Positions 7,505 through 59,092 of a DNA stretch of 64,000 nt are shown here, piece after piece. The stretch is taken from positions 388,269 through 452,268 of the forward strand of contig CAWGTQ010000016.1 in NCBI GenBank assembly GCA_963825395.1. Reading direction: 5' to 3'. This DNA is from an uncultured Acidobacteriota bacterium. GTDB taxonomy: Bacteria > Acidobacteriota > Terriglobia > UBA7540. The notes beneath the pieces are model-generated. The model worked only from the letters and a program-made list of their open reading frames with translations, had not been told where the DNA came from and made no database searches. The translations under genes and the position numbers were made by a program. How positions within the stretch are numbered: position 1 is the first letter of the stretch; the number at the start of each line of letters is the position of its first letter.

Positions 7505-7553
7505 GCTTCCTCCGGCTTCCCGTTTGGCATCGCCCGAGCGATTGCCGGCAGGC

Positions 7554-8945
7554 TTACAATTTTACCTGCTGAAGATAGGTCGGCACCGAAACATCCCAGT
7601 GGAGTTGCTGGGCAATGCGCTGCCGCAGAGCCTCGCTGGCCTTGGGTTCACCGTGAACCAAAAGGGTTTTCCCTGGCGTCTTGGCGAACCGGCCAAGCCA
7701 AGCAAGGATTTCACCATAATCCGCATGGGCACTCAGGTTCTCGATGGTCTCAATGCGCGCCCGCACGTGCACTTCGTGGCCGTACATTTTCACGGCCTGG
7801 GCGCCGGATTGGATCGCCTGCCCGCGCGTTCCCGCCGCCTGGAATCCCACGAATAGTATGGTATTGCGATGGTCCGGCAGGCAGCGTTCCAGATGATGAA
7901 CCACGCGGCCGCCCGTCGCCATGCCGCTCGCGGAAATGATAATCGTTGGGTAGTGCGCGTCGTTGAGCTGCTTCGACGCCTCGATAGTCCTGTCAAAGTG
8001 CAGATTGGGTGGGGAGAACGGCTTGATCCCCTGCTCTTCCAGTGCATCCAATTCCAGGCTGTGGTCCTCTCGGTGCTTGTCGTAAAGATGGGTGACGTCG
8101 ATCGCCATGGGGCTGTCCAAGTGGATCGGCAACGAGTGCATCTTCTTATCTTCGATGAGTTCACGGAACAAGAAGAGCAGTTCTTGCGTGCGTCCCACGG
8201 CGAAGGAGGGAATTACTAACGTCCCGCCGCGGCGGGCCGTGTCCTCAACAATCGAAGTCAGGCGCGCGCCAATATCTTCCTTCGGGTGCAACCGGTCGCC
8301 GTAGGTGGATTCGAGCAGCATGTAATCGAATCCGTCTTCAGGCACGGCTGGTTCAGGAATAACCATTTGCGGGAAGCGGCCCAGGTCGCCGGAGAAGAGC
8401 AGCTTCTTGCTGGTCCCGTTTTCCCGGACCGTCACTTCGATCATGCGCGCGCCCAGGATGTGTCCCGCGAAAAAGCCGCGTATCGTGAAGTGCGGGGAAA
8501 TCTCGACCCGCTCCACGGCGTACACCGCATGAATGCGTTCGAGCGACTTTACCGCCTCCTCATAGTTGTAGAGGGGCAGGGCGGGGGCGTGTTTGCTGAA
8601 TCCCTTTTTGTTTGCGAAGTCCGCATCTTCTTCCTGTAGGTGTCCGGAATCCGGCAACACAATTTTGGCAAGATCCACCGTGGCCGAAGACGCCAGGATC
8701 TGGCCGTGAAAGCCGTCCTTCACCAAGCGTGGAATGTAGCCGATGTGGTCGAGGTGCGCGTGCGTCAGGACGATCCATTGGATGCTCGCGGGCGGCACGG
8801 GCAGCGGATTCCAGTTGCGTAGCCGCAGTTCCTTGTCCCCCTGGAAGAGTCCGCAGTCAACCATCAAGCGTTCGCCGCCGGCTTCCAGCAGATATTTCGA
8901 ACCGGTTACCGTGCCGGTCGCACCGAGAAAAGTGAGAGTGGCCAT
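7554..8945 (-). CDS. MBL-fold metallo-hydrolase with beta-CASP / RNA-specificity domain (CPSF73/RNase J-like)
   Basis: This is a 463-aa ORF with THAHLDHIG (HxHxDH), ESTYGDR, and a C-terminal SAHADY...LVHGE. Confidence 0.85.
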   Translation of the reverse strand: MATLTFLGATGTVTGSKYLLEAGGERLMVDCGLFQGDKELRLRNWNPLPVPPASIQWIVLTHAHLDHIGYIPRLVKDGFHGQILASSATVDLAKIVLPDSGHLQEEDADFANKKGFSKHAPALPLYNYEEAVKSLERIHAVYAVERVEISPHFTIRGFFAGHILGARMIEVTVRENGTSKKLLFSGDLGRFPQMVIPEPAVPEDGFDYMLLESTYGDRLHPKEDIGARLTSIVEDTARRGGTLVIPSFAVGRTQELLFLFRELIEDKKMHSLPIHLDSPMAIDVTHLYDKHREDHSLELDALEEQGIKPFSPPNLHFDRTIEASKQLNDAHYPTIIISASGMATGGRVVHHLERCLPDHRNTILFVGFQAAGTRGQAIQSGAQAVKMYGHEVHVRARIETIENLSAHADYGEILAWLGRFAKTPGKTLLVHGEPKASEALRQRIAQQLHWDVSVPTYLQQVKL

Positions 8946-8985
8946 TAATTGTCCTTTGCGTATTGCCTAGGAATGACGTTTGGTA

Positions 8986-10597
8986 TCAAATCACCACCGA
9001 CTCCTGATACTCGCCGAAGACCCGGCGGAGGGCATCGGAGATCTCGCCCACGGTGGCGTAAGCCTTGACGGCGTCGAGAATCGCCGGTAGCAAGTTGCGT
9101 TCGGTACGCGCGGTCTCTTCCACGGCTCGGAGGGTTGATTCCACGCGCGCGGCGTCGCGACGCGCCCGCAGTGCGGCCAGGCGCTCAACCTGGGTGCGTT
9201 CGATTTCGGGATCGATACGCAGAAGGGGCGGAGAGGCTGCGGGTCTCGTCCACATACTGGTTCACCCCCACCACCACACGCTCTTGCCGCTCGATGGCTC
9301 TCTGATATTCGTAAGCGGCCCGCTGGATCTCGCGCTGCACGTAACCCGATTCGATGGCGCGCACCATGCCTCCCATCGCATCGATCCTGCGCAAGTATTC
9401 CCGGGCCTGGGCCTCGATCTCACCGGTGAGTTTTTCGATAACGTAGGAGCCTGCCAGCGGATCGATAGTGTTAGCCACGCCGCTTTCCGCAGCCAGAATT
9501 TGTTGCGTACGCAAGGCCAGCAACGCGGAAGCTTCTGTGGGCAAGGCCAGAGCTTCGTCGCGAGAATTGGTGTGCAGAGATTGCGTCCCGCCCAGTACCG
9601 CCGCCAGCGCCTGGAGCGTGACGCGCACGATGTTTACGTCGGGCTGCTGCGCCGTGAGCGTGGAGCCGGCGGTTTGCGTGTGGAAGCGGAACATCCAGGA
9701 GCGCTGGTTCTGGGCTTGGAAGCGCTCATGCATGATACGCGCCCAGAGCCGCCGCGCGGCGCGGAACTTGGCGACTTCCTCCAGTAGATCGTTATGCGCA
9801 TTCAGAAAGAAGGAGAGGCGCGGCGCAAATTCATCCACCGCCAAGCCTCGCGCCAGCGCCGCTTCCACGTAAGCAATGGCATTGGCTAAGGTGAAAGCCA
9901 CTTCCTGCACAGCGGTCGAGCCTGCTTCACGAATGTGATAGCCGCTGATGGATATGGTGTTCCACCCGGGAGCGCGGTCGCGGCAGAAGGCAAAGATATC
10001 CGTCACGATGCGCAGCGCGGGAGCGAGCGGATAAATGTAAGTGCCCCGCGCAACGTATTCTTTCAGAATATCGTTCTGGACCGTTCCCGACAACCGACTG
10101 AGATCGGCGCCTTGCTTTTCGGCTACGGCGAAATAGAGCGACAGCAAAATCGCCGCCGTCGCGTTGATGGTCATTGACGCCGAGACCCGCTCGAGAGGAA
10201 TCCCCTGGAAGAGCATTTCCATGTCTTCGAGCGAGTCGATGGCCACGCCCACACGCCCCACTTCACCGTGCGCCAGGGGGTGGTCAGAATCAAGGCCAAT
10301 CTGCGTGGGAAGGTCGAACGCGACGGAGAGGCCCGTTTGCCCTTGCGATAGCAGATAACGGTAGCGTGCATTCGATTCGCGTGCCGTCCCGAAACCTGCG
10401 TATTGGCGCATCGTCCAGAGGCGGCTGCGGTAAAGGGCCGCGTGAATGCCACGCGTGAAGGGGTATTCACCCGGATAGCCTGCCTCACTCTCGTAGTCCC
10501 AGCCGGCAAGGTCCTCAGGCGCATAGAACCTCTTAAGCTTCAACCCCGAGCCCGTAACGAATTTGCTTTTAAGTTCCTTGTCGTGTTGTGCAGCCAT
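8986..10597 (-). pseudogene. methylmalonyl-CoA mutase family catalytic subunit carrying a +1 frameshift (or a homopolymer sequencing error)
   Basis: Track ORF 9185..10678 holds the MCM catalytic domain ([34 protein letters not shown]). The last ~85 aa ([18 protein letters not shown]...[16 protein letters not shown]) continue in ORF 8986..9255 in the +1 frame. The switch lies at the coding-strand run CCCC (plus 9225-9228). Confidence 0.8.
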
Positions 10598-13243: not shown

Positions 13244-14098
13244 CTACTTCAGTCCCAAATGCCGCGCGATCAGCGCGTCGCGCCAGTGGTCAGGCAGAGC
13301 GCGGCCGAGGCTGATTTCGAGCCCGGAGTGGGCGCCCACCACGTAGCGCGTGCGGGGGCGTCGGGCGGTCAGCGCGTGTACGACAGCCTTCACCACCACC
13401 TCGGTTGATGCTGCCTGGGCGGACTCCCGTTCGATGGTGTCGCGAACGACGCGCATGGCGGGCCCATACAACTGAAGGGCTTCGGCAGGGAGTTGCGCCC
13501 GGAGCGCCTCCTCGCTGGTCAGCGATTTTTTCAAGATGGGCGTCCGAATGAAACCCGGCTCCACAATCGAAACGAGAATCTTCCAGGGCCGAAGCTCCAT
13601 GCGCAACGCGTCTGTCAAAGCTTCCAGCGCGAACTTAGAAGCGGAATAGGCACCAGTAAACGGGCTGGAGATCAGGCCACTCACTGAGCCGATATTCACA
13701 ATGCGGCCCCGCGCCTTGCGCAGGCTGGCAAGCAAGATCTGGGTGACGGCGATTTGGCCGACCACGTTGACCTCCAGCTGGCGGCGGAGGGCATCGAGTG
13801 GCAGGAACTCCAGCATTCCGCCCACAACGATGCCGGCGTTGTTGATGAGTCCTGCCAGTCCAGCGCCGCCCAACGCCTCAATGACATTGCGGGCAGCCTG
13901 GCTAACTTCCGTCTCATCGGTGATGTCCAGGCGGACCGGAACCAGCCGCTCGGATGCGCGCCGCCGCAGGGACTCACCATCAGCAGCTTTGCGGATGCAC
14001 GCGAAGACGCGATATCCCAGCTTATCGATGTGCAACGCACACGCTTCCCCGATCCCCGTCGATGCTCCCGTAATGACCACAGCGCCCTTGTCTGCCAT
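13244..14098 (-). CDS. SDR family oxidoreductase
   Basis: The internal ATG at 14098 gives MADKGAVVITGASTGIGEA. NNAG and YSASKFA (YxxxK) are present. Confidence 0.85.
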   Translation of the reverse strand: MADKGAVVITGASTGIGEACALHIDKLGYRVFACIRKAADGESLRRRASERLVPVRLDITDETEVSQAARNVIEALGGAGLAGLINNAGIVVGGMLEFLPLDALRRQLEVNVVGQIAVTQILLASLRKARGRIVNIGSVSGLISSPFTGAYSASKFALEALTDALRMELRPWKILVSIVEPGFIRTPILKKSLTSEEALRAQLPAEALQLYGPAMRVVRDTIERESAQAASTEVVVKAVVHALTARRPRTRYVVGAHSGLEISLGRALPDHWRDALIARHLGLK

Positions 14099-14260
14099 CG
14101 GCCCTCCTCTTTGCGGAGGGCTATAATACCAGCGGACACGCGCCTTGCGCTTTGATGAATTTTTATTACCGATGAGGAAGGTAGCCCCTTCCCCACTCGC
14201 CTGAATCATCCGGGTTAAGCCCTCAAGAAATGAGAGAAAAAGTTGAGGGGAGCTTGCCTT

Positions 14261-14848
14261 TCACTCCAAGGCGGCAAGCAATAGAGAAGCCTTTCGCGCC
14301 AGGTTCAGAGCACGCGGAAGATCGCCGCTTGCCATTGCGTGCGTGGCCTGCGCAAAGAATGTGCGCGCATCTTCAAGCGTTTTCTGATCGTTGGTAGAGA
14401 GCCGTGCGCCATTGAAGCGAGCTAGGCGCTGGCGGACGTCCTGCTCGAGTTGGCGAAACTGGTTCTTGAGATCGTTTTCCTGGGCAGTGCTTTGTCGTGG
14501 TTCGAGGGCGGGAATTTCCGCGGGAGGTGTCTCAGGAGTTTCCTGCGTGGAGGTTTCATCGGGCTCGGGGGCCGTTGCGGTGCGCGCCGGGTTCCGTCGA
14601 CGGTGAGAGGCCGTGGGCTCTGGGGTTTGGGGTGGCGCAATCTCTTCCGGCTCAGGTTCAGGTGGGGGTGCAGGTTCCTCGATCACCAGAACTTGTGGTT
14701 CCGTGGCGGCTGGCGCCGCCGCCGGGGCTTGCGCCGGAGCGTGCGCCGGAACGTAAACAATAAGGCTTTTGGAGGCCTGGCGTTTGGGACAACCGCCAAA
14801 CCAGAGCAACAGAGCGCAAAGCGATGAAATAGACCCACGCCGCAGCAT
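14261..14848 (-). CDS. Pro/Glu-rich lipoprotein, hypothetical
   Basis: The signal peptide ends in a lipobox-like LWFGGC. A long PAPE-rich linker and a helical C-terminal domain follow. Confidence 0.55.
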   Translation of the reverse strand: MLRRGSISSLCALLLWFGGCPKRQASKSLIVYVPAHAPAQAPAAAPAATEPQVLVIEEPAPPPEPEPEEIAPPQTPEPTASHRRRNPARTATAPEPDETSTQETPETPPAEIPALEPRQSTAQENDLKNQFRQLEQDVRQRLARFNGARLSTNDQKTLEDARTFFAQATHAMASGDLPRALNLARKASLLLAALE

Positions 14849-15135
14849 CTTGAGAATTCTATCATTACCGACGCTCAGGGCGAAACCCGCCTGCCGGCGC
14901 AGGAGACGGGCCTCCCCTGGTCGATGGCTCGTGATTTTTGGTAAGGGTTAATAGAAAAAAGCAAACCTTTCCCTCGATTCAGATTATTGACGTCCGATGT
15001 GGAAGCCCCGATAATTTGCCCGTTAGGGGCGTTTGATTGCTCCTCCGCGGCCAAATCTAGGTTAGCCGCACCCCGCGTCGGGTCTTAGGTCAGCCCAGTC
15101 TCAGGGACATCGCTATCCAATCGGAGAGTGGTCAT

Positions 15136-18492
<3,357 letters not shown>

Positions 18493-29524: not shown

Positions 29525-29600
29525 GTTGCGGCTCCGCCGCTCTGCGCTACCCGCTTCCAATCTCCTGGTGAGAAATCCGCTCTGGCAGAGTGGGTAGCGC
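29525..29600. repeat. partial third copy of the composite repeat seen at 30330 and 31549
   Basis: ttgcggctccgccgctctgcgctacccgcttccaatctcctggtgagaaatcc matches the 3' part of both larger copies. Confidence 0.6.
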
Positions 29601-29758
29601 AGACGTACGCGTTCTTTGCGTTCGTCTGCGGCTCTTCATGGGTCCATGGGATTTCATGTTTGGATGCTAATATCAGGGTTGATGTTTCCATGTTAAGAAC
29701 CGAGGAGGAAGCCAGACGGCGGCTACCTCCGCGCTGCCCGCTCTTCCCTTGGGTTCCG

Positions 29759-44734: not shown

Positions 44735-44779
44735 CGAAAAACGCCCTTCCTGGAAAGTGGCCAAGCTGAGCCACGGGTA
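44735..44779 (+). repeat. 45-nt conserved hairpin element, copy 1
   Basis: cgaaaaacgcccttcctggaaagtggccaagctgagccacgggta differs from 57369-57413 at a single position. It contains the hairpin GTGGC-caagctga-GCCAC. Confidence 0.6.
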
Positions 44780-44863
44780 ACGCCGACATCTCAAGCCTGC
44801 CCTTAGCGGAGCGAGCCGAAGAACCTCGACCCGGATATCGATGAGACCTATTATCCAGAATTC

Positions 44864-49822: not shown

Positions 49823-49843
49823 GAAGATGAGGAGGGTTTGGTC

Positions 49844-52036
49844 ATGGTAAATCGACGCGACTTTCTGCAAACCTTCGCCATTGGATCGTTGCTCGCCACG
49901 AGCAGGCCAGGCAGTTCGGGGGAAGTAGCCGGGTCGGACCCCAAAGGATGGTACGACCGCCCGATGCGCTGGGCGCAGCTCGCCTTCGTCGAGGACGACC
50001 CGGGCAACTACGATCCCGCCTTTTGGCTGGACTATTTCCGCCGCATTCATGCCGATGCCGCATGTCTTAGCGCCGGAGGGTGCGTCGCCTTTTATCCTAC
50101 CCAAATTCCTCTTCATTACCGAAGCAGGTGGCTGGGGAATATGGATCCCTTCGGCGATATGGTGAAGGGTTGCCGCGCTTTGGGAATGAATGTGATTGGC
50201 CGAACCGACCCTCATGCCGTGCATCAGGATGTCTTTGACGCGCATCCCGACTGGATCATGGTTGACGCCGAGGGTAGAAAGCAGCGGCACCCGTCGGATC
50301 CGGACTTCTGGATTACTTGTGCCCTCGGCCCCTACAATTTCGAGTTCATGACCACCGTGACGAAGGAGATCATGCGGCTCTACCACTTGGACGGAATCTT
50401 CTCGAACCGCTGGGCCGGTTCCGGCATGTGCTACTGCCTTCACTGTAAGGAGAACTTCCTGGCGTTCTCAGGGATGGATCTGCCACGAAGCAACGATCCA
50501 CAGAATCCGGCGCGACGCCAATACATCCTCTGGCGCCAGAAGCGGCTCTTTGAACTGTGGCGCCTCTGGGATTCCGCCATTAAGGATATCAATCCTGGCG
50601 CCAGCTATATCGCGAATGCCGGTGGCGGGGCTCTTAGCGGACTCGACATGAAAACCATCGGCGAGATAGCGCCTACATTGTTCGCGGATAGGCAAGGGCG
50701 CAGTGGGGTCATGCCGCCGTGGGCAAACGGTAAGAATGGCAAGGAATACCGTGCCACCCTGGGGCGAAAGGCGATTGCCGGGATCTTCAGTGTCGGAAAT
50801 ACCGCCAAGTACCGGTGGAAGGACTCCGTTCAAAATGGCGACGAGATCCGGATGTGGGTTGTCGACGGCATTGCGCACGGTTTGCGCCCCTGGTTTACCA
50901 AATTCAATGCCAAGCCGATCGACCGGCGCTGGCTTCCCGTAGTCGAAGAGATCTATAACTGGCATTACCAGAATGAGCGATACCTGCGCAATGAACGCTC
51001 GCTGGCCCGAGTGGCCATGGTGTATTCGCAACAGACCGCCGCATTTTATGGAGGCGAGCAGGCACAAGCCAAGGTGGAAGATCCCGCCCTCGGCTTTTAC
51101 CAGGCGCTCGTGGAAGCTCGGATTCCCTTCGAGATGGTCCATGACGAACTGCTCGATTCTGAGCACGTGGCGCCTTTCCGTACGCTAATCCTGCCGAACA
51201 TTGCGGCGCTATCCACGAAACAGTGCGATCAGATCCAGGAATATGTGAATAAGGGCGGGAGTGTTATCGCCACTTATGAAACGTCGCTTTATGACGAATG
51301 GGGCGTACGCAGGCAGGACTTCGGGCTTGCCTCCCTATTCGGTGCTTCGTTTGCCGGCGGGGTGGAAGGGCCGATGTTGAACTCCTATCTAGCCTTGGAG
51401 AAGGATCCGGCGACCGGCCGTTTCCATCCCCTGTTGTTCGGGCTGGAGGATGCAACCCGCATCATCAACGGCGTGAATAGAGTGATCGTGAAACCTGCGG
51501 AAGCCGGTGCGTATTCTCCCCTGAGGGTCGTTCCCTCGTATCCGGATCTTCCTATGGAAGAGGTTTTCCCGCGTCCGGCCACGACGAATGAGGCGGGGGT
51601 ATTCATTCGTCAAATTGGACGCGGACGCGTGGTGTACTTCCCTTGGGATGTGGACCGCACCTTCTGGGAGGTGCTGGATGTGGATCACGGGAAGTTGCTG
51701 CGCAACGCGGTGCTGTGGGCCACGAACGAACCGGCGCCGGTTTCGGTCAAGGGTGCTGGGGTTCTTGATCTGTCAATCTGGACGCAAAAGAATTCCATAA
51801 CCGTTCATCTGGTGAACCTGACCAATCCCATGATGATGAAGGGACCCCTGCGGGAGATCATTCCCGTGCCGCGCCAGCAGGTGCGCATCCTTATTCCCAA
51901 CCGCCAGCACATCGCGAAGGTCCACCTGCTGGTGGCAAAGCAGGAGATACCCTATCGACAGGACGGGGTTACCATTGATCTGGAGATCCCGGCCATAGAA
52001 CTTCATGAGGTCATCGCGCTCGATTTTGCGTCCTAG
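49844..52036 (+). CDS. Tat-signal GH42-like / beta-galactosidase-trimerisation-domain family protein
   Basis: The ATG at 49844 follows GAGGAGGG. The leader is VNRRDFLQTFAIGSLLA. The N-terminal TIM-barrel-like region (GMNVIGRTDPHAV...LDGIFSNRW) and a Cys cluster (CYCLHC) resemble this family. Confidence 0.65.
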   Translation: MVNRRDFLQTFAIGSLLATSRPGSSGEVAGSDPKGWYDRPMRWAQLAFVEDDPGNYDPAFWLDYFRRIHADAACLSAGGCVAFYPTQIPLHYRSRWLGNMDPFGDMVKGCRALGMNVIGRTDPHAVHQDVFDAHPDWIMVDAEGRKQRHPSDPDFWITCALGPYNFEFMTTVTKEIMRLYHLDGIFSNRWAGSGMCYCLHCKENFLAFSGMDLPRSNDPQNPARRQYILWRQKRLFELWRLWDSAIKDINPGASYIANAGGGALSGLDMKTIGEIAPTLFADRQGRSGVMPPWANGKNGKEYRATLGRKAIAGIFSVGNTAKYRWKDSVQNGDEIRMWVVDGIAHGLRPWFTKFNAKPIDRRWLPVVEEIYNWHYQNERYLRNERSLARVAMVYSQQTAAFYGGEQAQAKVEDPALGFYQALVEARIPFEMVHDELLDSEHVAPFRTLILPNIAALSTKQCDQIQEYVNKGGSVIATYETSLYDEWGVRRQDFGLASLFGASFAGGVEGPMLNSYLALEKDPATGRFHPLLFGLEDATRIINGVNRVIVKPAEAGAYSPLRVVPSYPDLPMEEVFPRPATTNEAGVFIRQIGRGRVVYFPWDVDRTFWEVLDVDHGKLLRNAVLWATNEPAPVSVKGAGVLDLSIWTQKNSITVHLVNLTNPMMMKGPLREIIPVPRQQVRILIPNRQHIAKVHLLVAKQEIPYRQDGVTIDLEIPAIELHEVIALDFAS

Positions 52037-52039
52037 CGT

Positions 52040-52342
52040 TCATTCCGGCCGATGGGGGGACCAGGAGAAACCGGCGGGTACGCGGCCTTGCCGCTTGCCC
52101 CCTACCGGCGGCAGATCGGGAGCCGTATTCGCCAAGGCTTGCAGGCCCGGCTTCTCCTCGACGGAGACAGTAATCACGCTGGGCGGGGCCTCGGGAGTCC
52201 CGCCGCTTTGGCTCTGCAGCACCACTTCTTGATAGACCAGCAGCACTTCCCGCATCTTAGTCTCGAAGGCCGGATCGCGCCGCTCCAGATAATAAGTCAC
52301 CTTGTCGGCTGACCAGAAGATTGGCCGTGGTCGAGCGTGCAC
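52040..52342 (-). mobile_element. IS630-family transposase fragment (no DDE domain)
   Basis: The translation RRDPAFETKMREVLLVYQEV...VSVEEKPGLQAL matches the conserved SxDPxFxxK...DEKxxIQAL linker region of IS630-like transposases. It is truncated on both sides. Confidence 0.6.
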
Positions 52343-52890
52343 GATTATGTGGGGAGCGTGAACGATGCACCGATCACCCCCAGCGGCCTGTCGGCGGATC
52401 GCATCACGATTCCCGCCGACCCGCGAACGCGGATATGAGCCGATGCCAGGATGGGACTATGCCGGATCGAAATGCTGCAGACGAACGCAAACGACGCGTA
52501 CGTCTGCGCTACCTCGCTTCTGGAGCTGATGGCCGACAGGATTAGCTTCGACCTGCGGCAGTTGGGCGTTCCGGAACTCCAGGAGCCATAGAGGGGCCTC
52601 TGCGGTCCGCCTTCCGTGGGGTTTTCAGCGACCCTCCTCAGCGTTTCCACGAGTGCAAGCGCAATATTGGTCGAACTTCCCCGCCGTCCTCGATTCGCTG
52701 TATAATCCTGCTAAAGGGAGAGACCTGCAGGAGAACACGACGCGGAGGAGCGCGTGCGAACGGACGAGGGGTGTGCTGGCAGCAATGAAACGCGGCCCCC
52801 CCTTAAACAGGGTTATGTGTGGTTGGGTGTTGACTAGCGGGCGATGACAGCGCGGGCTCTGGTGGCTGATACTGGCCAAAAAGGGGCGCA

Positions 52891-55464
52891 ATGAAAACTC
52901 AGAAGCCAACCAAACAGCATTCTCAGCGGATGCTGTGCTGCCTGATGCTGGCGGCAGCATTGCCGCCGGCTTTCGGCCAAGTGGGTTCCGATCCGCAGGC
53001 ACTGCAAAACAGCGGCATCGCCAAGATCGACACGTGGACCGATTATGTCCGCCGCACCGGGGACGCCAAGAGCACAGTCTCCGAGTTGGCGGCAGCGCAG
53101 GCCGACTTGAAAGCCAGCTTTGACCTTTTCACGCAGCAGAAAGACTATGCCGGAGCGTCGCTGAGCGCGACCAAACTGGCGAACATCGAGAGACTGTTGA
53201 ACCAATGGCGCCAGGCTGTGCCGATCTACCAGACGGCAGTACAGCTCGCCAAGCTCGCCGGTCGTACAGATTATCAAACCACCGCGCTGTCGAACCTTTC
53301 ATGGTCCGAGTTGCAGCTCGGCGAGACTGACGCAGCCGAAGAGCACGTCCGTGAGGCCGTGCGCCTCGGGGCCGATTGCGGCAACAAGGAGTTTTATTTC
53401 GAGGCCCTCGATACGGCTGGTGAGGTCGAGGCCAAGCGGAACGATCTGGTGGCGGCAGGCGATTACCTGGACCGTGCACTGGCCATGAGCGGACAGATCG
53501 ATGACAAGAAGAAACTTTACCTCGGATACATGGATCGCGGCGACATTTACGGGCAGATTGCCACGAAGTGCGACTATCAGCGCAACTTCGACGTCTGCTA
53601 CCAGTCACTCGAGCTGGCACGGACCGACTACCAGAAGGGATTGGCCATTACCCAGGAGCTGGGTTATACCTATTTCTCGAATTTGTTCCAGGAGTTCCTG
53701 AAAGAACTCGATACCCGTAAGGCGATAATTCAGTCGATGCAGCATGGTGATCAGGCTATTACCAGCACCAAGCTCTTCAGCCCCCAGCAACCGAAGGATG
53801 TGCTGGTCACAGAGCATTTCACGTCCGGCGCCTGGGACGCTGCCATGCTAGCGCCGGTGGAAGCCGTGGTTAAGGAGTTTCGGGATTGGCAGGCTCGTCA
53901 GCGGCAGCAGGGATTGACCGTGCAGGATCTTAATCCCTCAGACGCTTGCCTGGAAGGCCAACTTGCCGAGATGAAAGGCGACAATGATGCTGCCTTGGCG
54001 GCCTTTCAGCAAGCTCATGAACTGCTGGAAAAGGATCGCCGGAACCTGAATGACGAACAGGCACGGGGCGCATTCATGGAGGACAAGCTTTCCTGCTATT
54101 ACGATCCGGCGCTCATTATGCTCGACCGCCGACGGTATCCGGAAGCCTTCGCCATTTTCGAACAGTCGCGTTCCCGGGCTATGGCCGACCTTCTGGCCAG
54201 TCGCCCGCTGACCTTGGACAACGCCAAGGAACGTGAGCTGTTCTCACAACTGCAAACCCTAAAGACCAACATTGCCGCGCAGCAGGAAAAGCTTTTCAAC
54301 CTCACCGGCAGCCGGGATCGCGACAAGAACATCAAGCAAATTATCGAGCTTCAGAGCAAGATCACCGCGCTCCAGCAACAGTTCGAGCAGCTCGAAAGCC
54401 GCGTCGCGAAAGAAGCCCCCAAACTGAAGGAACTGACGGCCGCTCAACCTGCGACGCTGGACAGCGTGCAGCGATCCGCGGCGAAGGGGAATTATGATGT
54501 TCTCTATTACGTGGTTCTGGAACACGCCGTAATCCTTTGGCATATTGACGGCGCCGGAGTCCAGGTCAAGAATGTTTTCCTGCCGCATGTTCAGCTTATA
54601 AAAAAGGCCGCGGCCCTTCACGACAGCCTGGTCGCACCACGCGACGCACCGGACGCTCAGTTCGACGAGGACACTTCGCGCCAGTTGTTTCTCTACCTCA
54701 TCCAGCCGATGCTCGCTTCCATCAAGAGCCGTCATCTCATCCTGGTACCCCACGAAGAGCTAAACTCGATTCCCTTCCAGGCGCTGCAAGACCCGGCAAC
54801 TGGAAAGTATCTGGGAGAGACTTTTGCGATTTCCTATGCGCCTAGCGCCACAGTCCTGGCAAGTCTGGAGAGCCTTTCGTCACTGAAGCGCGGGCGCCTG
54901 CTGGCAGTGGCCGATCCTTCGATCCACGAGGCCAGCGATGAAGTCAACGCCATCGGCAAGCTCTATCCGGGACGCAGTAAAGTGGTAGCGCAAGAAGCCG
55001 CCAGCAAAGCAGACGTGAAGAGCTGGGTGAGCGATTACGATATGGTGCACCTTTCGGTGCATGGGAAGTTCAATCGCAGTGATCCGCTGCTATCATATCT
55101 GCAACTCAAGGAAGAGGAACCTGACAATGGGCGGTTGACGGCGGCGGAAATGTTTGGCCTGCCGCTACGGAAGAACAGTGTTGTGGTGCTGAGCGCCTGC
55201 GAAACCGGCCGCGTCGAGGCAACTCACGCCAACGAAGTCCAGGGCATGGTGCGCTCGCTGCTCTACGCTGGGGCAGGCAGACTGGTGCTTTCCGAGTGGG
55301 AAGTGAATGCCGGGTCCACCCGCTTGTGGATGGAGACCTTCTACCGGCAGGGGCAAAACAGCCCGCCAGCGGAGGCGGCACGGCTGGCCCTGATTGCGGT
55401 TAAGGCGCGCCCCGAGTACAGTCATCCCTTTTTCTGGGCGCCGTTTGTGATGACGGGGAAATAG
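52891..55464 (+). CDS. exported TPR-like / coiled-coil / CHAT-domain (caspase-fold) protease
   Basis: This 857-aa ORF has a signal peptide (MLCCLMLAAALPPAFGQ). The C-terminal CHAT domain carries a His (MVHLSVHGKF) and a Cys (VVVLSACETG) dyad context and ends with HPFFWAPFVMTGK. Confidence 0.85.
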   Translation: MKTQKPTKQHSQRMLCCLMLAAALPPAFGQVGSDPQALQNSGIAKIDTWTDYVRRTGDAKSTVSELAAAQADLKASFDLFTQQKDYAGASLSATKLANIERLLNQWRQAVPIYQTAVQLAKLAGRTDYQTTALSNLSWSELQLGETDAAEEHVREAVRLGADCGNKEFYFEALDTAGEVEAKRNDLVAAGDYLDRALAMSGQIDDKKKLYLGYMDRGDIYGQIATKCDYQRNFDVCYQSLELARTDYQKGLAITQELGYTYFSNLFQEFLKELDTRKAIIQSMQHGDQAITSTKLFSPQQPKDVLVTEHFTSGAWDAAMLAPVEAVVKEFRDWQARQRQQGLTVQDLNPSDACLEGQLAEMKGDNDAALAAFQQAHELLEKDRRNLNDEQARGAFMEDKLSCYYDPALIMLDRRRYPEAFAIFEQSRSRAMADLLASRPLTLDNAKERELFSQLQTLKTNIAAQQEKLFNLTGSRDRDKNIKQIIELQSKITALQQQFEQLESRVAKEAPKLKELTAAQPATLDSVQRSAAKGNYDVLYYVVLEHAVILWHIDGAGVQVKNVFLPHVQLIKKAAALHDSLVAPRDAPDAQFDEDTSRQLFLYLIQPMLASIKSRHLILVPHEELNSIPFQALQDPATGKYLGETFAISYAPSATVLASLESLSSLKRGRLLAVADPSIHEASDEVNAIGKLYPGRSKVVAQEAASKADVKSWVSDYDMVHLSVHGKFNRSDPLLSYLQLKEEEPDNGRLTAAEMFGLPLRKNSVVVLSACETGRVEATHANEVQGMVRSLLYAGAGRLVLSEWEVNAGSTRLWMETFYRQGQNSPPAEAARLALIAVKARPEYSHPFFWAPFVMTGK

Positions 55465-55465
55465 C

Positions 55466-56374
55466 ATGCCCGAGCTCTGGAACGACTTCACGGACAAGCT
55501 GGGAAGTCTGGCAGGAAAATGGACGGCATACGCCGCCGTGGGCTCCTTCTTGCTCTACCTGCTCGGCTACCTTACCCTGCGTTTCCAGCTCAGCACCTAC
55601 GGCGTGGCCGCCGACCTCGACATTTTCGATGAAAAGTACCTGTTCGCTGGTTGCCGCTTTGTGGTGTACCTGGTATCGGCCGTGCCTAACATTCTCATTA
55701 TCGTTCTGGTGCTGGCGGCCATCGGATATGTCCCGTACAAGCTTGTGCCGGTGTCTCTCAAGGACCGCATGAAACGCTGGGTCTCTTCTTGGTGCGCCCC
55801 CCCTCTCCATCTGCCTCTGCTGGGCGTGGTGCTGGCTGTGGCGTTGATCCAATTCGTGATGCGTAAGTGCTTCGCCTTTGGCAATCTGCTGCTGCGTAAG
55901 CAACTGCCCGATGAATGGTCCAGTTCCGTGCTCCTGGCCAGCGATGGCAAGCTTTCGCTGTACTTCAGCGGCCTGGTTGCAGGCGCGCTGCTCACCGGCG
56001 CCATCCTTCTTTTTGTGCAACACCGCGCCACGGCCACCACCGCCGCATCCCGCTTCTGGACAGGCCTTCTGGTTTTCCTTTTTGCGGTAGAGTTTCTGCT
56101 GCTGCCGGTCAACTACGGCGTCCTGATCGCCACCCAGCAGCTTCCGCGAGTAGCAGAACTCAGCGCCGTTGAGAAGCCTCCCGCAGGTGAACGTGACTGG
56201 CTGCTGTGGGACAGCAAAGACGCTTTCACCTACTTCATTCGCGACGGCCAAGATCAGCGCACGATCATCACCGTGCCCAGAAAGGACGCCACGGTGAGGA
56301 TCGTCGCTTATGACGACATATTTTGCGTGTTGTTTGGCGGAAACAACGTCCAGTCCCGTCCCTGTCCGAGGTAG
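55466..56374 (+). CDS. polytopic membrane protein, unknown family
   Basis: The ATG lies 1 nt after the CHAT stop (TAGCATG). About 5 hydrophobic helices precede a soluble C-terminal domain of ~80 aa. Confidence 0.6.
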   Translation: MPELWNDFTDKLGSLAGKWTAYAAVGSFLLYLLGYLTLRFQLSTYGVAADLDIFDEKYLFAGCRFVVYLVSAVPNILIIVLVLAAIGYVPYKLVPVSLKDRMKRWVSSWCAPPLHLPLLGVVLAVALIQFVMRKCFAFGNLLLRKQLPDEWSSSVLLASDGKLSLYFSGLVAGALLTGAILLFVQHRATATTAASRFWTGLLVFLFAVEFLLLPVNYGVLIATQQLPRVAELSAVEKPPAGERDWLLWDSKDAFTYFIRDGQDQRTIITVPRKDATVRIVAYDDIFCVLFGGNNVQSRPCPR

Positions 56375-56380
56375 GAAGTC

Positions 56381-57136
56381 ATGCGTAGACCCATTGCCTG
56401 CTTGCTCTTGATTTTACTGGTAAGTGCCTTCCCAGGACTCGCCCAGACGAATGCACCAGCCGGCAGGCCGAAGCCACAGACCAGTTTCATCGAGAAGGTC
56501 CTGAAGTTTGTCGGCATCTCCGACAATCCGGGCACGCTCAAAGGTCCGGGCGACGAAGTTACCAGTGGAGAACTCTGGCTGACCGACTTGCAGGCCAGGA
56601 CCACGCGCGCTTTGACCTCCAGCGACGGCTACCGTTCTCCGATTTTTCTGGCTGGAAACAAGGACGTACTCGCGCTGCGCGGTACGGAGGTGGTACGCGT
56701 CCCAAGTGCGGGTGGAGAAGGCAAGAAGCTCTATTCGGTTGACGGGATCCTGAAGCTGGTGGGAGCCGGCTCGGAAGATGCCGGAACGGTACTCATCCTC
56801 TTGCGGGACGGAGTCGGCGGACATCCGCGTGTAGGGCTGCTGACGGTTGGCACAGGGGTGGTGATGCCTATGCCTTACGACTCTGCTTCCAATCATGATC
56901 TGCAAATGGTGGAGGACCTGGAAGGATGGTCGCGGACTTACGGCGACCAGCACATCTACGTGCGACGGCAATTCAAACAAGCGCTCTCGGGTACGGTCGA
57001 GTGGAGTGACGTTTTTCTTCAGGTGGAAGGTCAACCGCCGGTGGATGTCAGCCAGTGTGATGGGGTCAATTGCGGGCAGCCGTCCCTCTCCGCTGATCAA
57101 CATTGGCTGGTCTTCGTAAAAACGAAGACGGAATAA
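56381..57136 (+). CDS. exported protein, possibly beta-propeller-like, unknown family
   Basis: The ATG lies 6 nt after the previous stop, with an AGGAAG RBS. The signal peptide is MRRPIACLLLILLVSAFPGLAQ. The C-terminal PSLSADQHWLVFV resembles a TolB-type blade motif. Confidence 0.6.
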   Translation: MRRPIACLLLILLVSAFPGLAQTNAPAGRPKPQTSFIEKVLKFVGISDNPGTLKGPGDEVTSGELWLTDLQARTTRALTSSDGYRSPIFLAGNKDVLALRGTEVVRVPSAGGEGKKLYSVDGILKLVGAGSEDAGTVLILLRDGVGGHPRVGLLTVGTGVVMPMPYDSASNHDLQMVEDLEGWSRTYGDQHIYVRRQFKQALSGTVEWSDVFLQVEGQPPVDVSQCDGVNCGQPSLSADQHWLVFVKTKTE

Positions 57137-57368
57137 GACCGAGCGCGATTAAGTTTCAGCGAGATTATCGAGCTTTAAGCTTTATCGCAGTAAACAGAGG
57201 CTCGGCAAAGTCCCATGCCGGCGATGTGCGTGGTTGGGTCAGGAACGTTGGCTATCCGGAAGCGATTCGAGTCGGGACTCAACGCTACAGCTTACCTGCG
57301 TATAGTCGCCAAGGTTAACCAATAGATGTCAAAAACTGCCCAACCCACTACCTGAGCTGGATTGGGAA

Positions 57369-57413
57369 CGAAGAACGCCCTTCCTGGAAAGTGGCCAAGC
57401 TGAGCCACGGGTA
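57369..57413 (+). repeat. 45-nt conserved hairpin element, copy 2
   Basis: It reads cgaagaacgcccttcctggaaagtggccaagctgagccacgggta. Confidence 0.6.
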
Positions 57414-57540
57414 GCGCGGAGTTATTCCGCCCCGAGCGGGATGGTTCTGCGGCTCTTCGTTGCGCAGATCAATAAACGTGTGGACCTTTTTCGTATTCAG
57501 ACCCGCGGAGTAGTGCGCTGCGCGCGCAACTCCGCGCTAC
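57411..57540. repeat. 130-nt element with perfect 13-nt terminal inverted repeats
   Basis: GTAGCGCGGAGTT lies at 57411-57423 and AACTCCGCGCTAC at 57528-57540. Confidence 0.6.
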
Positions 57541-57904
57541 CGGCTTTCGCATTAAAAAACATGTTTACGCTCATGGTATTCAGAGCTTGGAGGTGTATAC
57601 TTTTGCCTGCCCGAGGCCCAGGAAGGAAGTTCCGTATCGACAAAGCAAGCTGGTAACGCAGCTCCTCTGCCCGACTGGCATGGTGCCGAGCCTTACCGGG
57701 CCGGAGTGCTCTCGCTCGCAGCGCATCGACCTGGGGTGAAAGTGCAGACGCGCGAGTTGATCGGGAGGAATGCCTCCCGGCCCGCGCTTCGACCTCGACC
57801 CCTCTCTCGCCAAGTCTTCAGAGTTTGTAGCGTGCAAGGGTCCCTCATCGTCCCGCCTCGGTAACAAGGGAGGGCCGTATCTCCGACAAGGGAGGAATAT
57901 CGAA

Positions 57905-59092
57905 GTGACAAAAAATATTTCGCGAAGGTCCTTTATGGTTGGTGCGGCCACTGCGGCGGCGGCCCTGCGTGTTGGTGGGGCGAATGACCGCATTCGCCTG
58001 GGCATCATCGGCTCGGGCCAGCGTGGGCAGTACTTGATGACCAGGGCCAACGAGACCGGCAATATTGAATGGGTAGCGATTTCTGACATCTACGACGCCC
58101 GGCGCGATGAAGCCGAGAAGGTGGCGAAGACCCGTGTCGACAAGTACCCCGATTACCATGAATTACTCGATCGCAAAGATATCGACGGCGTAATTGTGGC
58201 GACTTTCGATCACATGCATTCCCAGATATCCATCGACGCCTGCAGGGCCGGCAAGGACGTTTACGTCGAAAAGCCCATGACCTCGTTGCCCGAGCAGGGG
58301 CCACCCCTGGTGCGCGCCGTCCGTGAAACCCACCGCATCCTGCAAGTGGGAATGCAGCAGCGGACCACGGCCCACTTCGCCGAAGCCAAGCAGAAATATT
58401 TCGATACCGGCGTGATCGGCAAGGTCAACATGGTCCGAACGATCTGGAACGGCAACAGCGGTTATTTGACGCCAGTCCCCCCCGGCATGGAGCAGAAGCC
58501 TGCGGGTCTCGATTGGGACGCTTGTCTTGCCTGGCTTCCCAAGATTCCCTGGGACCCCAAGCGCTATTTCAACCGCTTCGCTTACTGGGATTTCTCCACC
58601 GGCGGTCAGACCGGAGGCCTGTTCGTGCACATGGTCGACGTGGTTCACTGGTTCATGAACCTGACGCATCCCTTGGCGGCCGTGGCGGGCGGAGGAATTT
58701 ATCTTTACGACGACGGACGCGACACGCCTGACAACGTCAATTTCATTGTGGAATACCCCGAGAAGCTCAACGTGACGTTTGAAGCTACGATCACCGATAT
58801 GATCGGACGGGACAACGCGGACATCGTCTTCATGGGTACCGGCGGGAGGCTCTCTATCTTCCGCTACGGTTACAAGTTCATCCCCAGCAAACAAAATCCC
58901 CAACTGGCCGAGGCCACCGTGCCCGGCGTGAACGACCAGCACATGAGAAATTGGCTGGACTGCATGCGCAGCCGCAAGCAACCCAATGGCGACGTGGTGA
59001 ATGGACACTATTCGGCGATGGCTTGCCATATCGGTGATATCGCTTACCAGCAGAAAACCCGGACCACCTGGCAAAAGGAGTGGGAGGTATGA
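57905..59092 (+). CDS. Tat-signal Gfo/Idh/MocA family oxidoreductase
   Basis: I chose the GTG at 57905, 8 nt after GGGAGGA. The twin-arginine leader is ISRRSFMVGAATAAAAL. The Rossmann motif is IRLGIIGSGQRG, and EKP is present (YVEKPM). Confidence 0.8.
   Translation: MTKNISRRSFMVGAATAAAALRVGGANDRIRLGIIGSGQRGQYLMTRANETGNIEWVAISDIYDARRDEAEKVAKTRVDKYPDYHELLDRKDIDGVIVATFDHMHSQISIDACRAGKDVYVEKPMTSLPEQGPPLVRAVRETHRILQVGMQQRTTAHFAEAKQKYFDTGVIGKVNMVRTIWNGNSGYLTPVPPGMEQKPAGLDWDACLAWLPKIPWDPKRYFNRFAYWDFSTGGQTGGLFVHMVDVVHWFMNLTHPLAAVAGGGIYLYDDGRDTPDNVNFIVEYPEKLNVTFEATITDMIGRDNADIVFMGTGGRLSIFRYGYKFIPSKQNPQLAEATVPGVNDQHMRNWLDCMRSRKQPNGDVVNGHYSAMACHIGDIAYQQKTRTTWQKEWEV

Follow-up and report, generated by a model that had tools for sequence, protein, structure and literature searches.

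An exported TPR-CHAT protease and an unnamed membrane partner pair are predicted to form a widespread extracytoplasmic module

Bacterial caspase-fold proteases, such as CHAT proteins and orthocaspases, are to our knowledge viewed almost exclusively as parts of immunity and cell-death systems in the cytoplasm. Here we describe three adjacent genes on a contig of an uncultured Acidobacteriota bacterium, of which a stretch of 64,000 nucleotides (nt) was analysed (the window; its numbering is used throughout). Gene 1 encodes a TPR-CHAT cysteine protease with a signal peptide, gene 2 a polytopic membrane protein and gene 3 an exported beta-propeller-like protein. Comparison of the trio with its relatives indicates a single conserved module that would work outside the cytoplasm, in which a Sec-exported protease is combined with a membrane and exported partner pair. 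Genes 2 and 3 are the constant core of this module and the adjoining protease is interchangeable, being either TPR-CHAT or a Peptidase_C14 protein with WD40 or Sel1 repeats. The initial annotation, made from the letters of the window, had proposed an uncharacterised envelope-located CHAT protease coupled to a membrane and a periplasmic partner, and this proposal is upheld by linkage in 78 of 80 loci together with a conserved signal peptide and catalytic dyad.

Linkage was surveyed in one genome per GTDB species, using an alignment of gene 2 only and a single peptide pattern. This non-exhaustive survey returned 80 loci, whose six-frame open reading frames (ORFs) were searched with the window proteins and with Peptidase_C14 domains. 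A caspase-fold protease is found in the cluster in 78 of these loci. A gene-1-like TPR-CHAT gene lies directly upstream, with gene 3 also present, in 56 loci; 6 loci contain CHAT, Peptidase_C14 and gene 3, and 12 contain Peptidase_C14 and gene 3 with no CHAT. Four further loci contain CHAT and reach the contig edge before gene 3 could appear, so that a CHAT ortholog stands directly upstream of gene 2 in 66 of the 80 loci (56 + 6 + 4). The two loci without a protease are a contig that begins at gene 2 and another that ends 1.4 kb after gene 2. Gene 3 is present in all 76 loci with enough downstream sequence. The linkage of genes 2 and 3 to CHAT genes elsewhere, on which the initial annotation had staked its proposal, is therefore seen at the level of species, in the form of a caspase-fold protease next to gene 2.

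The survey loci come from Acidobacteriota (several orders), Desulfobacterota, NC10, Nitrospinota, Rokubacteria, Binatia and Alpha-, Beta- and Gammaproteobacteria, and one metagenome-assembled genome (MAG) labelled Heliomicrobium was also returned. Apart from the module genes, no family of neighbours (regulators, sigma or anti-sigma factors, defence, Tol-Pal and CRISPR genes included) recurs in more than 8 of the 80 loci.

The arrangement of the three genes is tight. The TAG stop codon of gene 1 is followed by a single base and then by the ATG of gene 2, and 6 nt separate the stop codon of gene 2 from the ATG of gene 3; the ORFs and both gaps first annotated were confirmed on the sequence. Purine-rich runs resembling Shine-Dalgarno sequences lie inside the 3′ ends of gene 1 and gene 2, before the next start, which fits translational coupling. 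Contigs with identical or distant copies retain the order CHAT-gene 2-gene 3 and the 1-nt and 6-nt spacing. For example, a Bryobacteraceae MAG has the identical order and spacing with a gene 3 that is 62% identical, and different flanking genes. We consider it very likely that CHAT, gene 2 and gene 3 form a dedicated functional module.

Two further observations were made in the survey loci. Five Acidobacteriota loci (L012:3924-5300(-), L014, L025, L028 and L030) contain near the trio a protein of 400-490 amino acids (aa) without a Pfam family; it lies divergently upstream in several of them and is absent from the window. In five loci from long-read MAGs (L029, L031, L056, L065 and L078) the module genes are broken up or run together by changes of frame, as in the 1376-aa CHAT-gene 2-gene 3 ORF of L056. 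These look like assembly indels and not like real fusions.

Gene 1 carries a complete CHAT domain with a His/Cys dyad, as had been read from its sequence. The match to Pfam PF12770 (residues 594-856, E=2e-53, 182 bits against a cut-off of 24) spans positions 2-288 of the 289-position profile. The nearest solved relative of this domain is the TPR-CHAT chain of Craspase (8d9f_A, E=9e-6), and the motifs HLSVHG (H724-G725) and LSACETG (C770) align residue for residue with its His and Cys, which we take to be the catalytic H585 and C627 of the published numbering. Among gene 1 and 54 orthologs, H724 is kept in 54 of 55 sequences, and G725 and C770 in 55 of 55 each, so the conservation of the catalytic pair that the initial annotation had expected is found in the alignment. 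Profile and dyad together assign gene 1 to the CHAT family (PF12770, caspase fold, clan CD), and the protease is apparently catalytically active.

The TPR-like repeats noticed at first are also real: TPR_12 matches residues 93-159 (E=3e-10), a further TPR match is found at residues 355-381, and the region gives PDB profile matches to LGN/Pins-type TPRs. C227 and C236 in this region are invariant among 21 diverse orthologs and may form a periplasmic disulfide. Between the TPR region and the CHAT domain, residues ~441-541 give weak SMC/GpsB-type matches only, and a coiled coil is plausible for this segment.

The signal peptide of gene 1 has its hydrophobic core at residues 14-32. An in-frame stop lies 7 codons 5′ of the ATG, which excludes a longer N-terminus, and the sole alternative start, M14, retains the hydrophobic core; the signal peptide is thus no start-codon artefact. 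An n-region, an h-region and an AxA-like site are found before a conserved mature start, DPxxLQ, in nearly all 54 full-length CHAT orthologs. A mis-called N-terminus, which would have placed the protease in the cytoplasm, is in this way set aside. Other export signals were rejected on inspection by eye: no lipobox precedes Cys16 or Cys17 as a lipoprotein signal would have, and there is no twin-arginine motif of a Tat signal. Export of the protease from the cytoplasm is, we predict, shared by the whole family.

Three CHAT orthologs of ~1020 aa (L032:4931-7984, L033:3-2816 and L038:4897-7998) have an N-terminal extension before DP..LQ and show no obvious signal peptide where other orthologs have one.

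The initial annotation had recognised no family for genes 2 and 3, and both indeed stand as families without a recognised name. No Pfam, NCBIfam or PADLOC family was found for either, and no PDB sequence relative was found even with family profiles. Gene 2 has 567 homologs in a 90%-clustered protein collection and 347 clusters in an exhaustive 50%-cluster library, down to ~30% identity, and gene 3 has 330 homologs in the 90%-clustered collection. Almost all of these homologs lack a name and derive from metagenomes of soil and peat and from Acidobacteriota MAGs.

Hydropathy of gene 2 shows four strong hydrophobic segments. Its AlphaFold2 (AF2) model, with a predicted local distance difference test score (pLDDT) of 67, has five transmembrane (TM) helices and a C-terminal beta domain (residues 228-282), in agreement with the approximately five helices and soluble tail that had been annotated. 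A Foldseek search of the model against the PDB returned nothing significant (best E=0.03, TM-score 0.14); the C-terminal ~56 residues alone resemble SH3-like integrase C-terminal domains. The most conserved loop carries the motif LDxxDE[KR]YLFAGxRF (residues 51-65). Two other loops, 94-114 and 187-193, are rich in Lys and Arg. Gene 2 has no conserved set of catalytic-type residues.

Natural fusions give information on both the partnership and the topology. Among the best 150 clusters at 50% identity, 12 consist of gene2::gene3 fusions of 502-543 aa, in which gene 2 is joined to the mature part of gene 3 with no TM segment between the two parts. The three fusions that were checked in context are each directly downstream of a CHAT gene. 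Since no hydrophobic segment follows TM5 in these fusions, the C-terminus of gene 2 should share a compartment with exported gene 3. We infer an N-in/C-out topology, in which the 51-65 loop and the beta domain would be periplasmic, and the positive-inside rule would place the loops 94-114 and 187-193 in the cytoplasm. The cytoplasmic parts of gene 2 would then be an 18-aa N-terminus and short loops.

Gene 3 had been annotated as an exported protein with a TolB-like blade. The signal peptide stands, and the AF2 model is all-beta (pLDDT 80, predicted template modelling score 0.76), while the match to TolB is weak. The top Foldseek matches are TolB propellers (2hqs_A, E=1e-4) at a TM-score of ~0.3 over a structured core of ~190 residues. 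PD40 is matched weakly in 8 of 36 homologs (best E=9e-4), the window copy has no Pfam match at E<=0.1, and a C-terminal motif, CGQPSxSxDGxxLVF, resembles a PD40 blade. TolB, the periplasmic propeller of the Tol-Pal system, is accordingly the best fold match and is likewise exported. Gene 3 differs from it in being about half the size, in the low TM-score, in having no Pfam match at the cut-off and in having no linked Tol-Pal genes. Members of the TolB/PD40 family would have PD40 repeats above threshold and a closed 6-bladed propeller with a TolB N-terminal domain; gene 3 was rejected as a member on its weak PD40 matches, its lack of a Pfam match and its TM-score of ~0.3.

Two features of gene 3 are strongly conserved. 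C226 and C231 are near-invariant, which would be consistent with a periplasmic disulfide. Between the N-terminal helix and the beta domain, in a segment with pLDDT <50, lies the linker motif G45-[ILV]-[ST]-x-[ST]-P50-x-x-[LM]-[KR]54-G. Of 88 sequences, among them C14-linked copies and fusions, 87 have Lys or Arg at position 54, while the linker around it varies. The same K/R motif is found in the linker that joins the gene-2 and gene-3 parts of the fusions.

The genes 2 and 3 are not found with CHAT alone. In a second architecture, gene 2 is followed by a WD40 array of 960-1250 aa ending in a Peptidase_C14 caspase domain, and then by gene 3. In loci of the Methylococcaceae type, a Sel1-repeat Peptidase_C14 is found upstream of gene 2. 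The SGHG and DxC catalytic motifs are retained in these C14 proteins, which likewise start with signal peptides, for example MKRLSLALVLISGLRAEDPRLVIESGGH. Among cultured bacteria, Syntrophus gentianae has four genes (TPR-CHAT, gene 2, gene 3 and WD40-C14) and Thioalkalicoccus limnaeus Um2 has the C14 version of the module. The C14 partners belong with the prokaryotic orthocaspases or metacaspases, whose WD40 and Sel1 forms they share and whose His/Cys motifs they keep; they differ from the others in having signal peptides and in being encoded between genes 2 and 3 or next to them. In the window the protease is of the CHAT type, not C14. The initial annotation had taken the partners to be dedicated to CHAT; their linkage to CHAT is confirmed, but they also accompany these exported WD40- and Sel1-Peptidase_C14 proteins.

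A neighbour-joining tree of gene 2, calculated without support values, shows CHAT-linked loci, C14-linked loci and loci with both intermixed. The intermixing suggests that the protease has been exchanged more than once around a constant gene 2-gene 3 core.

In gammaproteobacterial C14 loci, genes for an alpha/beta-hydrolase (lipase-like) and for an autotransporter beta-domain stand beside genes 2 and 3 (L043:5506-6444 and 7550-8887; L058:7930-8757 and 8807-10207; L085:12744-13712 and 13787-15424(-)), and L087 has a GDSL lipase upstream. The products of these genes could be extra effectors or clients. Two loci (L060:8925-10094 and L063:9139-10332) encode, between gene 2 and WD40-C14, exported Peptidase_C14-like proteins of 389-397 aa without SGHG/DxC, which may be pseudo-proteases.

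Next, we considered how such a module could act. Our leading proposal, which we regard as quite possible although somewhat short of probable, is a periplasmic proteolytic switch acting on a membrane partner. The products of genes 2 and 3 would form a complex on the periplasmic side of the inner membrane and serve as the dedicated partner of the exported protease. The TPR, WD40 or Sel1 repeat domain would sense an envelope cue, upon which the protease would cleave the partner; the best candidate site is after K54 in the gene 3 linker, or the same motif in the linker of the fusions. Cleavage would change the state of the 5-TM protein. As gene 2 has no cytoplasmic domain, the output would most simply be a change at the level of the membrane, for example permeabilisation or an envelope response. 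The whole would be a periplasmic counterpart of the caspase-gasdermin or Craspase-type proteolytic switches.

The extracytoplasmic site of this proposed switch is supported by the signal peptides on CHAT orthologs, WD40-C14 proteins and gene 3, by the fusions and by the Cys pairs in genes 1 and 3. The basic residue at position 54 is conserved whichever type of protease adjoins, and metacaspases and separase are proteases that cut after basic residues. The mobility and modularity of the locus also count in favour, as seen in the unshared flanks, the IS630 remnant beside the window copy and the Y1 transposase beside a fusion copy, the intermixed gene 2 tree and the spread over many phyla.

The proposed switch has a precedent in each of two cytoplasmic systems. 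Craspase, the type III-E CRISPR (clustered regularly interspaced short palindromic repeats) TPR-CHAT protease Csx29 with its substrate Csx30, is a sensor-activated protease that cuts a dedicated partner encoded beside it, as we propose here. Unlike our module, it is cytoplasmic, RNA-guided and bound to gRAMP/Cas7-11. An identity of gene 1 with Csx29 was rejected, with 24 bits against a cut-off of 300 for NCBIfam NF041237 and no CRISPR genes nearby. Neither gRAMP/Cas7-11 nor Csx30/Csx31 nor a CRISPR array was found beside the trio, and no such family recurs in the 80 loci.

The second precedent is the bacterial gasdermin operons, in which neighbouring caspase-like proteases (CHAT, Peptidase_C14 or subtilase) are fused to TPR, WD40 or NACHT. 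Gasdermins are soluble beta-rich cytoplasmic proteins that insert into the membrane after cleavage. As in the module, a membrane-acting partner stands beside interchangeable repeat-bearing caspase-fold proteases, and the interchange of CHAT and C14 is seen here too. The module differs in that gene 2 would be a constitutive 5-helix membrane protein and the whole system is exported. A gasdermin fold was looked for in the trio and rejected: genes 2 and 3 have no Pfam match, gene 2 is a helical TM bundle and gene 3 is propeller-like.

Several points weigh against the switch. The co-occurrence survey was seeded from gene 2 with one peptide pattern and was not exhaustive. The K/R motif may serve for docking and not be the scissile site, and the specificities of CHAT proteases vary, separase cutting after Arg and craspase at different sites (PMC11506125). 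Genes 2 and 3 show 70-87% identity across genera, which fits a housekeeping function at least as well as a conflict function. No PADLOC match was obtained, the 80 loci have no recurrent defence neighbours, and gene 2 is absent from the sequenced plasmids and phages searched; in PADLOC-DB v2 gene 1 gives marginal TPR and coiled-coil matches (E>=6e-4) and genes 2 and 3 give none. Finally, the confidence of the gene 2 model is moderate (pLDDT 67), and a pore or channel capability would be pure inference. Accepted in all its details, namely that in response to an envelope threat or cue the exported sensor-protease cleaves gene 3 at the conserved Lys/Arg and thereby unlocks the 5-TM subunit, which then depolarises the inner membrane or makes it permeable, the proposal is speculative and we hold it to be rather unlikely.

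The strongest alternative is that genes 2 and 3 are not substrates but anchors or adaptors, a platform with a TolB-like beta domain that would tether the protease at the inner membrane and deliver substrates to it. The proteins processed or quality-controlled would be other envelope proteins, and the role would be physiological or stress-related and not one in conflict. The high sequence conservation of genes 2 and 3 favours this reading, as does the tight translational coupling, which suggests a stoichiometric complex. Gene 2 also lacks a conserved set of catalytic-type residues, there are no defence-island neighbours and no PADLOC match, the flanks in the window are ordinary sugar-metabolism genes, and the gammaproteobacterial alpha/beta-hydrolase and autotransporter encoded alongside could be clients. 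Nonetheless the distribution over phyla is patchy and the genomic contexts are variable, and an exchange of protease families around a constant core is rarely tolerated by housekeeping machines. The near-invariant basic residue in a disordered linker would also be left unexplained. We regard an anchoring role as possible, if on balance unlikely.

Another alternative is regulated proteolysis, in which the periplasmic CHAT protein would be the site-1 protease on the membrane partner and the processed remnant would signal into the cytoplasm. The precedent is DdvA of Myxococcus xanthus (PMC11506125), which has the same broad layout of a periplasmic sensor-protease and a membrane protein and is the closest characterised case to the module. 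According to its authors, DdvA is the only reported structure of a transmembrane anti-sigma factor with a periplasmic TPR-CHAT and the only characterised anti-sigma factor with such a domain, and it is proposed to start regulated intramembrane proteolysis (PMC11506125). Like the module, DdvA has a periplasmic, inner-membrane-associated TPR-CHAT with a His/Cys dyad, and the sensing of an extracytoplasmic cue followed by a cut in a membrane-proximal linker is proposed for it as it is here. The TPR-CHAT of gene 1 would be periplasmic too, judging by the signal peptide, the partners and the Cys pairs.

The differences from DdvA are substantial. In DdvA one polypeptide also carries a cytoplasmic zinc-binding anti-sigma domain and a single TM helix, and it is paired with an extracytoplasmic function (ECF) sigma factor. 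Gene 1 is predicted to be a free exported protease that starts with a cleavable signal peptide; it is accompanied by a 5-TM protein and a beta-propeller-like protein, without a linked sigma factor. DdvA is not among the PDB sequence matches of gene 1 or of its family profile. We rejected gene 1 as an anti-sigma factor of the DdvA type: Pfam and NCBIfam show no anti-sigma domain, and there is neither a TM anchor nor an adjacent ECF sigma factor.

For a relay of this kind, gene 2 has no cytoplasmic domain to hold a sigma factor or other transducer, gene 1 has its cleavable signal peptide in place of an N-terminal anti-sigma domain and TM helix, and no ECF sigma factor, two-component system or other regulator is conserved beside the module. 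With neither a cytoplasmic domain in gene 2 nor a regulator gene linked to the module, signalling to a sigma factor in the manner of DdvA is unlikely, and we consider regulated proteolysis as a whole improbable.

Clan CD also includes transamidases, such as the glycosylphosphatidylinositol (GPI) transamidase and the type IX secretion system sortase PorU, which act outside the cytoplasm together with polytopic membrane subunits and beta-rich subunits. By analogy, the protease of the module would be a caspase-fold transamidase joining exported proteins to an acceptor in the envelope, and genes 2 and 3 would be its non-catalytic subunits. The types of subunit are superficially similar, but no sequence or fold similarity to the subunits of GPI transamidase or PorU/PorZ was detected, and no candidate substrate family with a shared sorting signal was seen beside the module. 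A transpeptidase or sorting function is, in our judgement, very doubtful.

Finally, the notion that three unrelated genes are packed together and that their adjacency is incidental is effectively refuted by the 78 of 80 species-level loci in many phyla, the fusions and the conserved spacing.

Full-text literature on periplasmic or exported CHAT proteins or metacaspases with membrane partners yielded only DdvA as relevant and no description of the trio; its coverage is thin for subscription journals, so that an earlier description is possible.

The features of the locus are collected in Table 1.

Table 1 Features of the trio and its surroundings, in window coordinates
Feature	Position	Strand	Basis or remark
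IS630-family transposase remnant	52040..52342	-	just after GHL6 gene, ~550 nt upstream of gene 1
Gene 1, exported TPR-CHAT cysteine protease (predicted), 857 aa	52891..55464	+	ORF; Pfam CHAT and TPR; orthologs upstream of gene 2
Gene 1, Sec-type signal peptide, residues 1-29	52891..52977	+	cleavage between AFG and Q, site read by eye
Gene 1, TPR/helical-repeat region, residues ~56-430	53056..54180	+	Pfam TPR_12, TPR_2, TPR_MalT
Gene 1, Cys227/Cys236 codons	53569-53571 and 53596-53598	+	TPR region
Gene 1, probable coiled-coil segment, residues ~441-541	54211..54513	+	L/Q/A/K/E-rich composition
Gene 1, CHAT (caspase-fold) domain	54670..55458	+	Pfam PF12770
Gene 1, catalytic His724 and Cys770 codons (predicted)	55060-55062 and 55198-55200	+	codons checked; aligned to 8d9f_A
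Gene 2, 5-TM inner-membrane protein (predicted), unnamed family, 302 aa	55466..56374	+	homologs; AF2; fusions
Gene 2, beta (SH3-like) C-terminal domain, residues 228-282	56147-56311	+	AF2
Gene 3, exported beta-propeller-like protein (predicted), unnamed family, 251 aa	56381..57136	+	homologs; AF2; Foldseek
Gene 3, signal peptide, residues 1-21	56381-56443	+	
Gene 3, conserved basic residue K54, disordered linker	56540-56542	+	
Gene 3, N-terminal helix 36-44; disordered linker; beta domain 63-247; conserved Cys226/Cys231			
45-nt repeated intergenic element	57370..57414	+	second copy 44736-44780
Terminator-like hairpin	57415..57451	+	~280 nt after gene 3; consensus scan only

The trio had been annotated as bracketed by mobile-element debris, and this is the case upstream but not downstream. 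The IS630 transposase fragment upstream is real: in a tblastn search against plasmids, its residues 14-83 (70 aa) match annotated IS630 transposases at 58% identity (E=5e-10), and the NCBIfam IS630 profile is matched at E=1e-3 over positions 111-175 of 299. It is a leftover of IS630 and not a functional element, a complete DDE transposase with terminal inverted repeats being absent. Of the repetitive extragenic palindromic remnants that had been annotated upstream, one 37-nt repeat was recovered and nothing beyond it; it lies in the long 5′ region of gene 1 (52477-52513) and has a counterpart on the opposite strand 23 kb upstream (29593-29629, 95% identity).

Downstream of gene 3, the conserved 45-nt element is borne out by its second copy. 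Both copies are intergenic, differ by 2 mismatches and contain a GTGGC...GCCAC hairpin, and 0 of 100 shuffles yielded two matches. The similarity is confined to the ~45-nt core, the flanks being unrelated, and the copy of the element that was searched against Rfam gave no match. The 130-nt element with 13-nt terminal inverted repeats that had been described there does not hold up: its terminal repeats are really a 14-nt inverted repeat (57410-57423/57528-57541) at chance level (E=0.12), and the 45-nt copies share no flanks. Promoter and terminator consensus scans around the trio are at or close to background, an Rfam search of 51900-57900 gave no match, and there is no tRNA in the window.

The neighbours of the trio are a GHL6 hydrolase, the IS630 fragment and a GFO/IDH/MocA oxidoreductase. 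The GHL6/Glyco_hydro_42M gene (49838-52036) has hundreds of close relatives in soil metagenomes. The start of the GFO/IDH/MocA ORF (57770-59092, 440 aa) is probably placed too far upstream; on the identical contig this gene is called at 385 aa. The ORF gives a weak Tat-signal match at residues 49-65.

Acquisition of the trio as an island, suggested from the start, is plausible, with evidence on both sides. The tetranucleotide deviation of the 4.2-kb trio is 0.0183, compared to a mean of 0.0127 (sd 0.0015), which makes it the most atypical stretch of its size in the window. The contents of guanine plus cytosine overall and at third codon positions are ordinary. The tetranucleotide signal could come from the unusual amino-acid composition of a coiled coil and TM helices. 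The IS630 remnant and the unshared flanks also fit an island: none of the 80 related gene-2 loci shares the flanking genes of the window. A Y1 transposase adjoins one fusion copy, and gene 2 has no match in plasmid or phage collections. Against an island, or neutral to it, are the ordinary base composition and the lack of a tRNA and of an empty site. A metagenome scan with the GHL6 protein gave 80 loci, none with the trio or with the downstream gene of the window, and the two nearest GHL6 relatives (88% DNA identity) have only the GHL6 gene in common with the window and no flanking DNA on either side. For want of further shared DNA an empty site cannot be delimited here, and synteny is little conserved in the region as a whole.

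Taken together, exported caspase-type proteases of two families appear to share one unnamed membrane partner pair in at least ten bacterial lineages, and two protein families of unknown function, genes 2 and 3, gain a concrete context. The proposal that cleavage takes place at a conserved basic residue and has its output at the membrane is testable, and Syntrophus gentianae and Thioalkalicoccus limnaeus Um2 are cultured carriers suited to it. If the module is an envelope-processing machine, it would represent a new kind of envelope protease complex. If it is a death or defence switch, regulated proteolysis of the caspase type would extend to the bacterial periplasm, and genes 2 and 3 would mark widespread undescribed systems of extracytoplasmic caspases and effectors, a periplasmic analogue of the caspase-gasdermin death switches.

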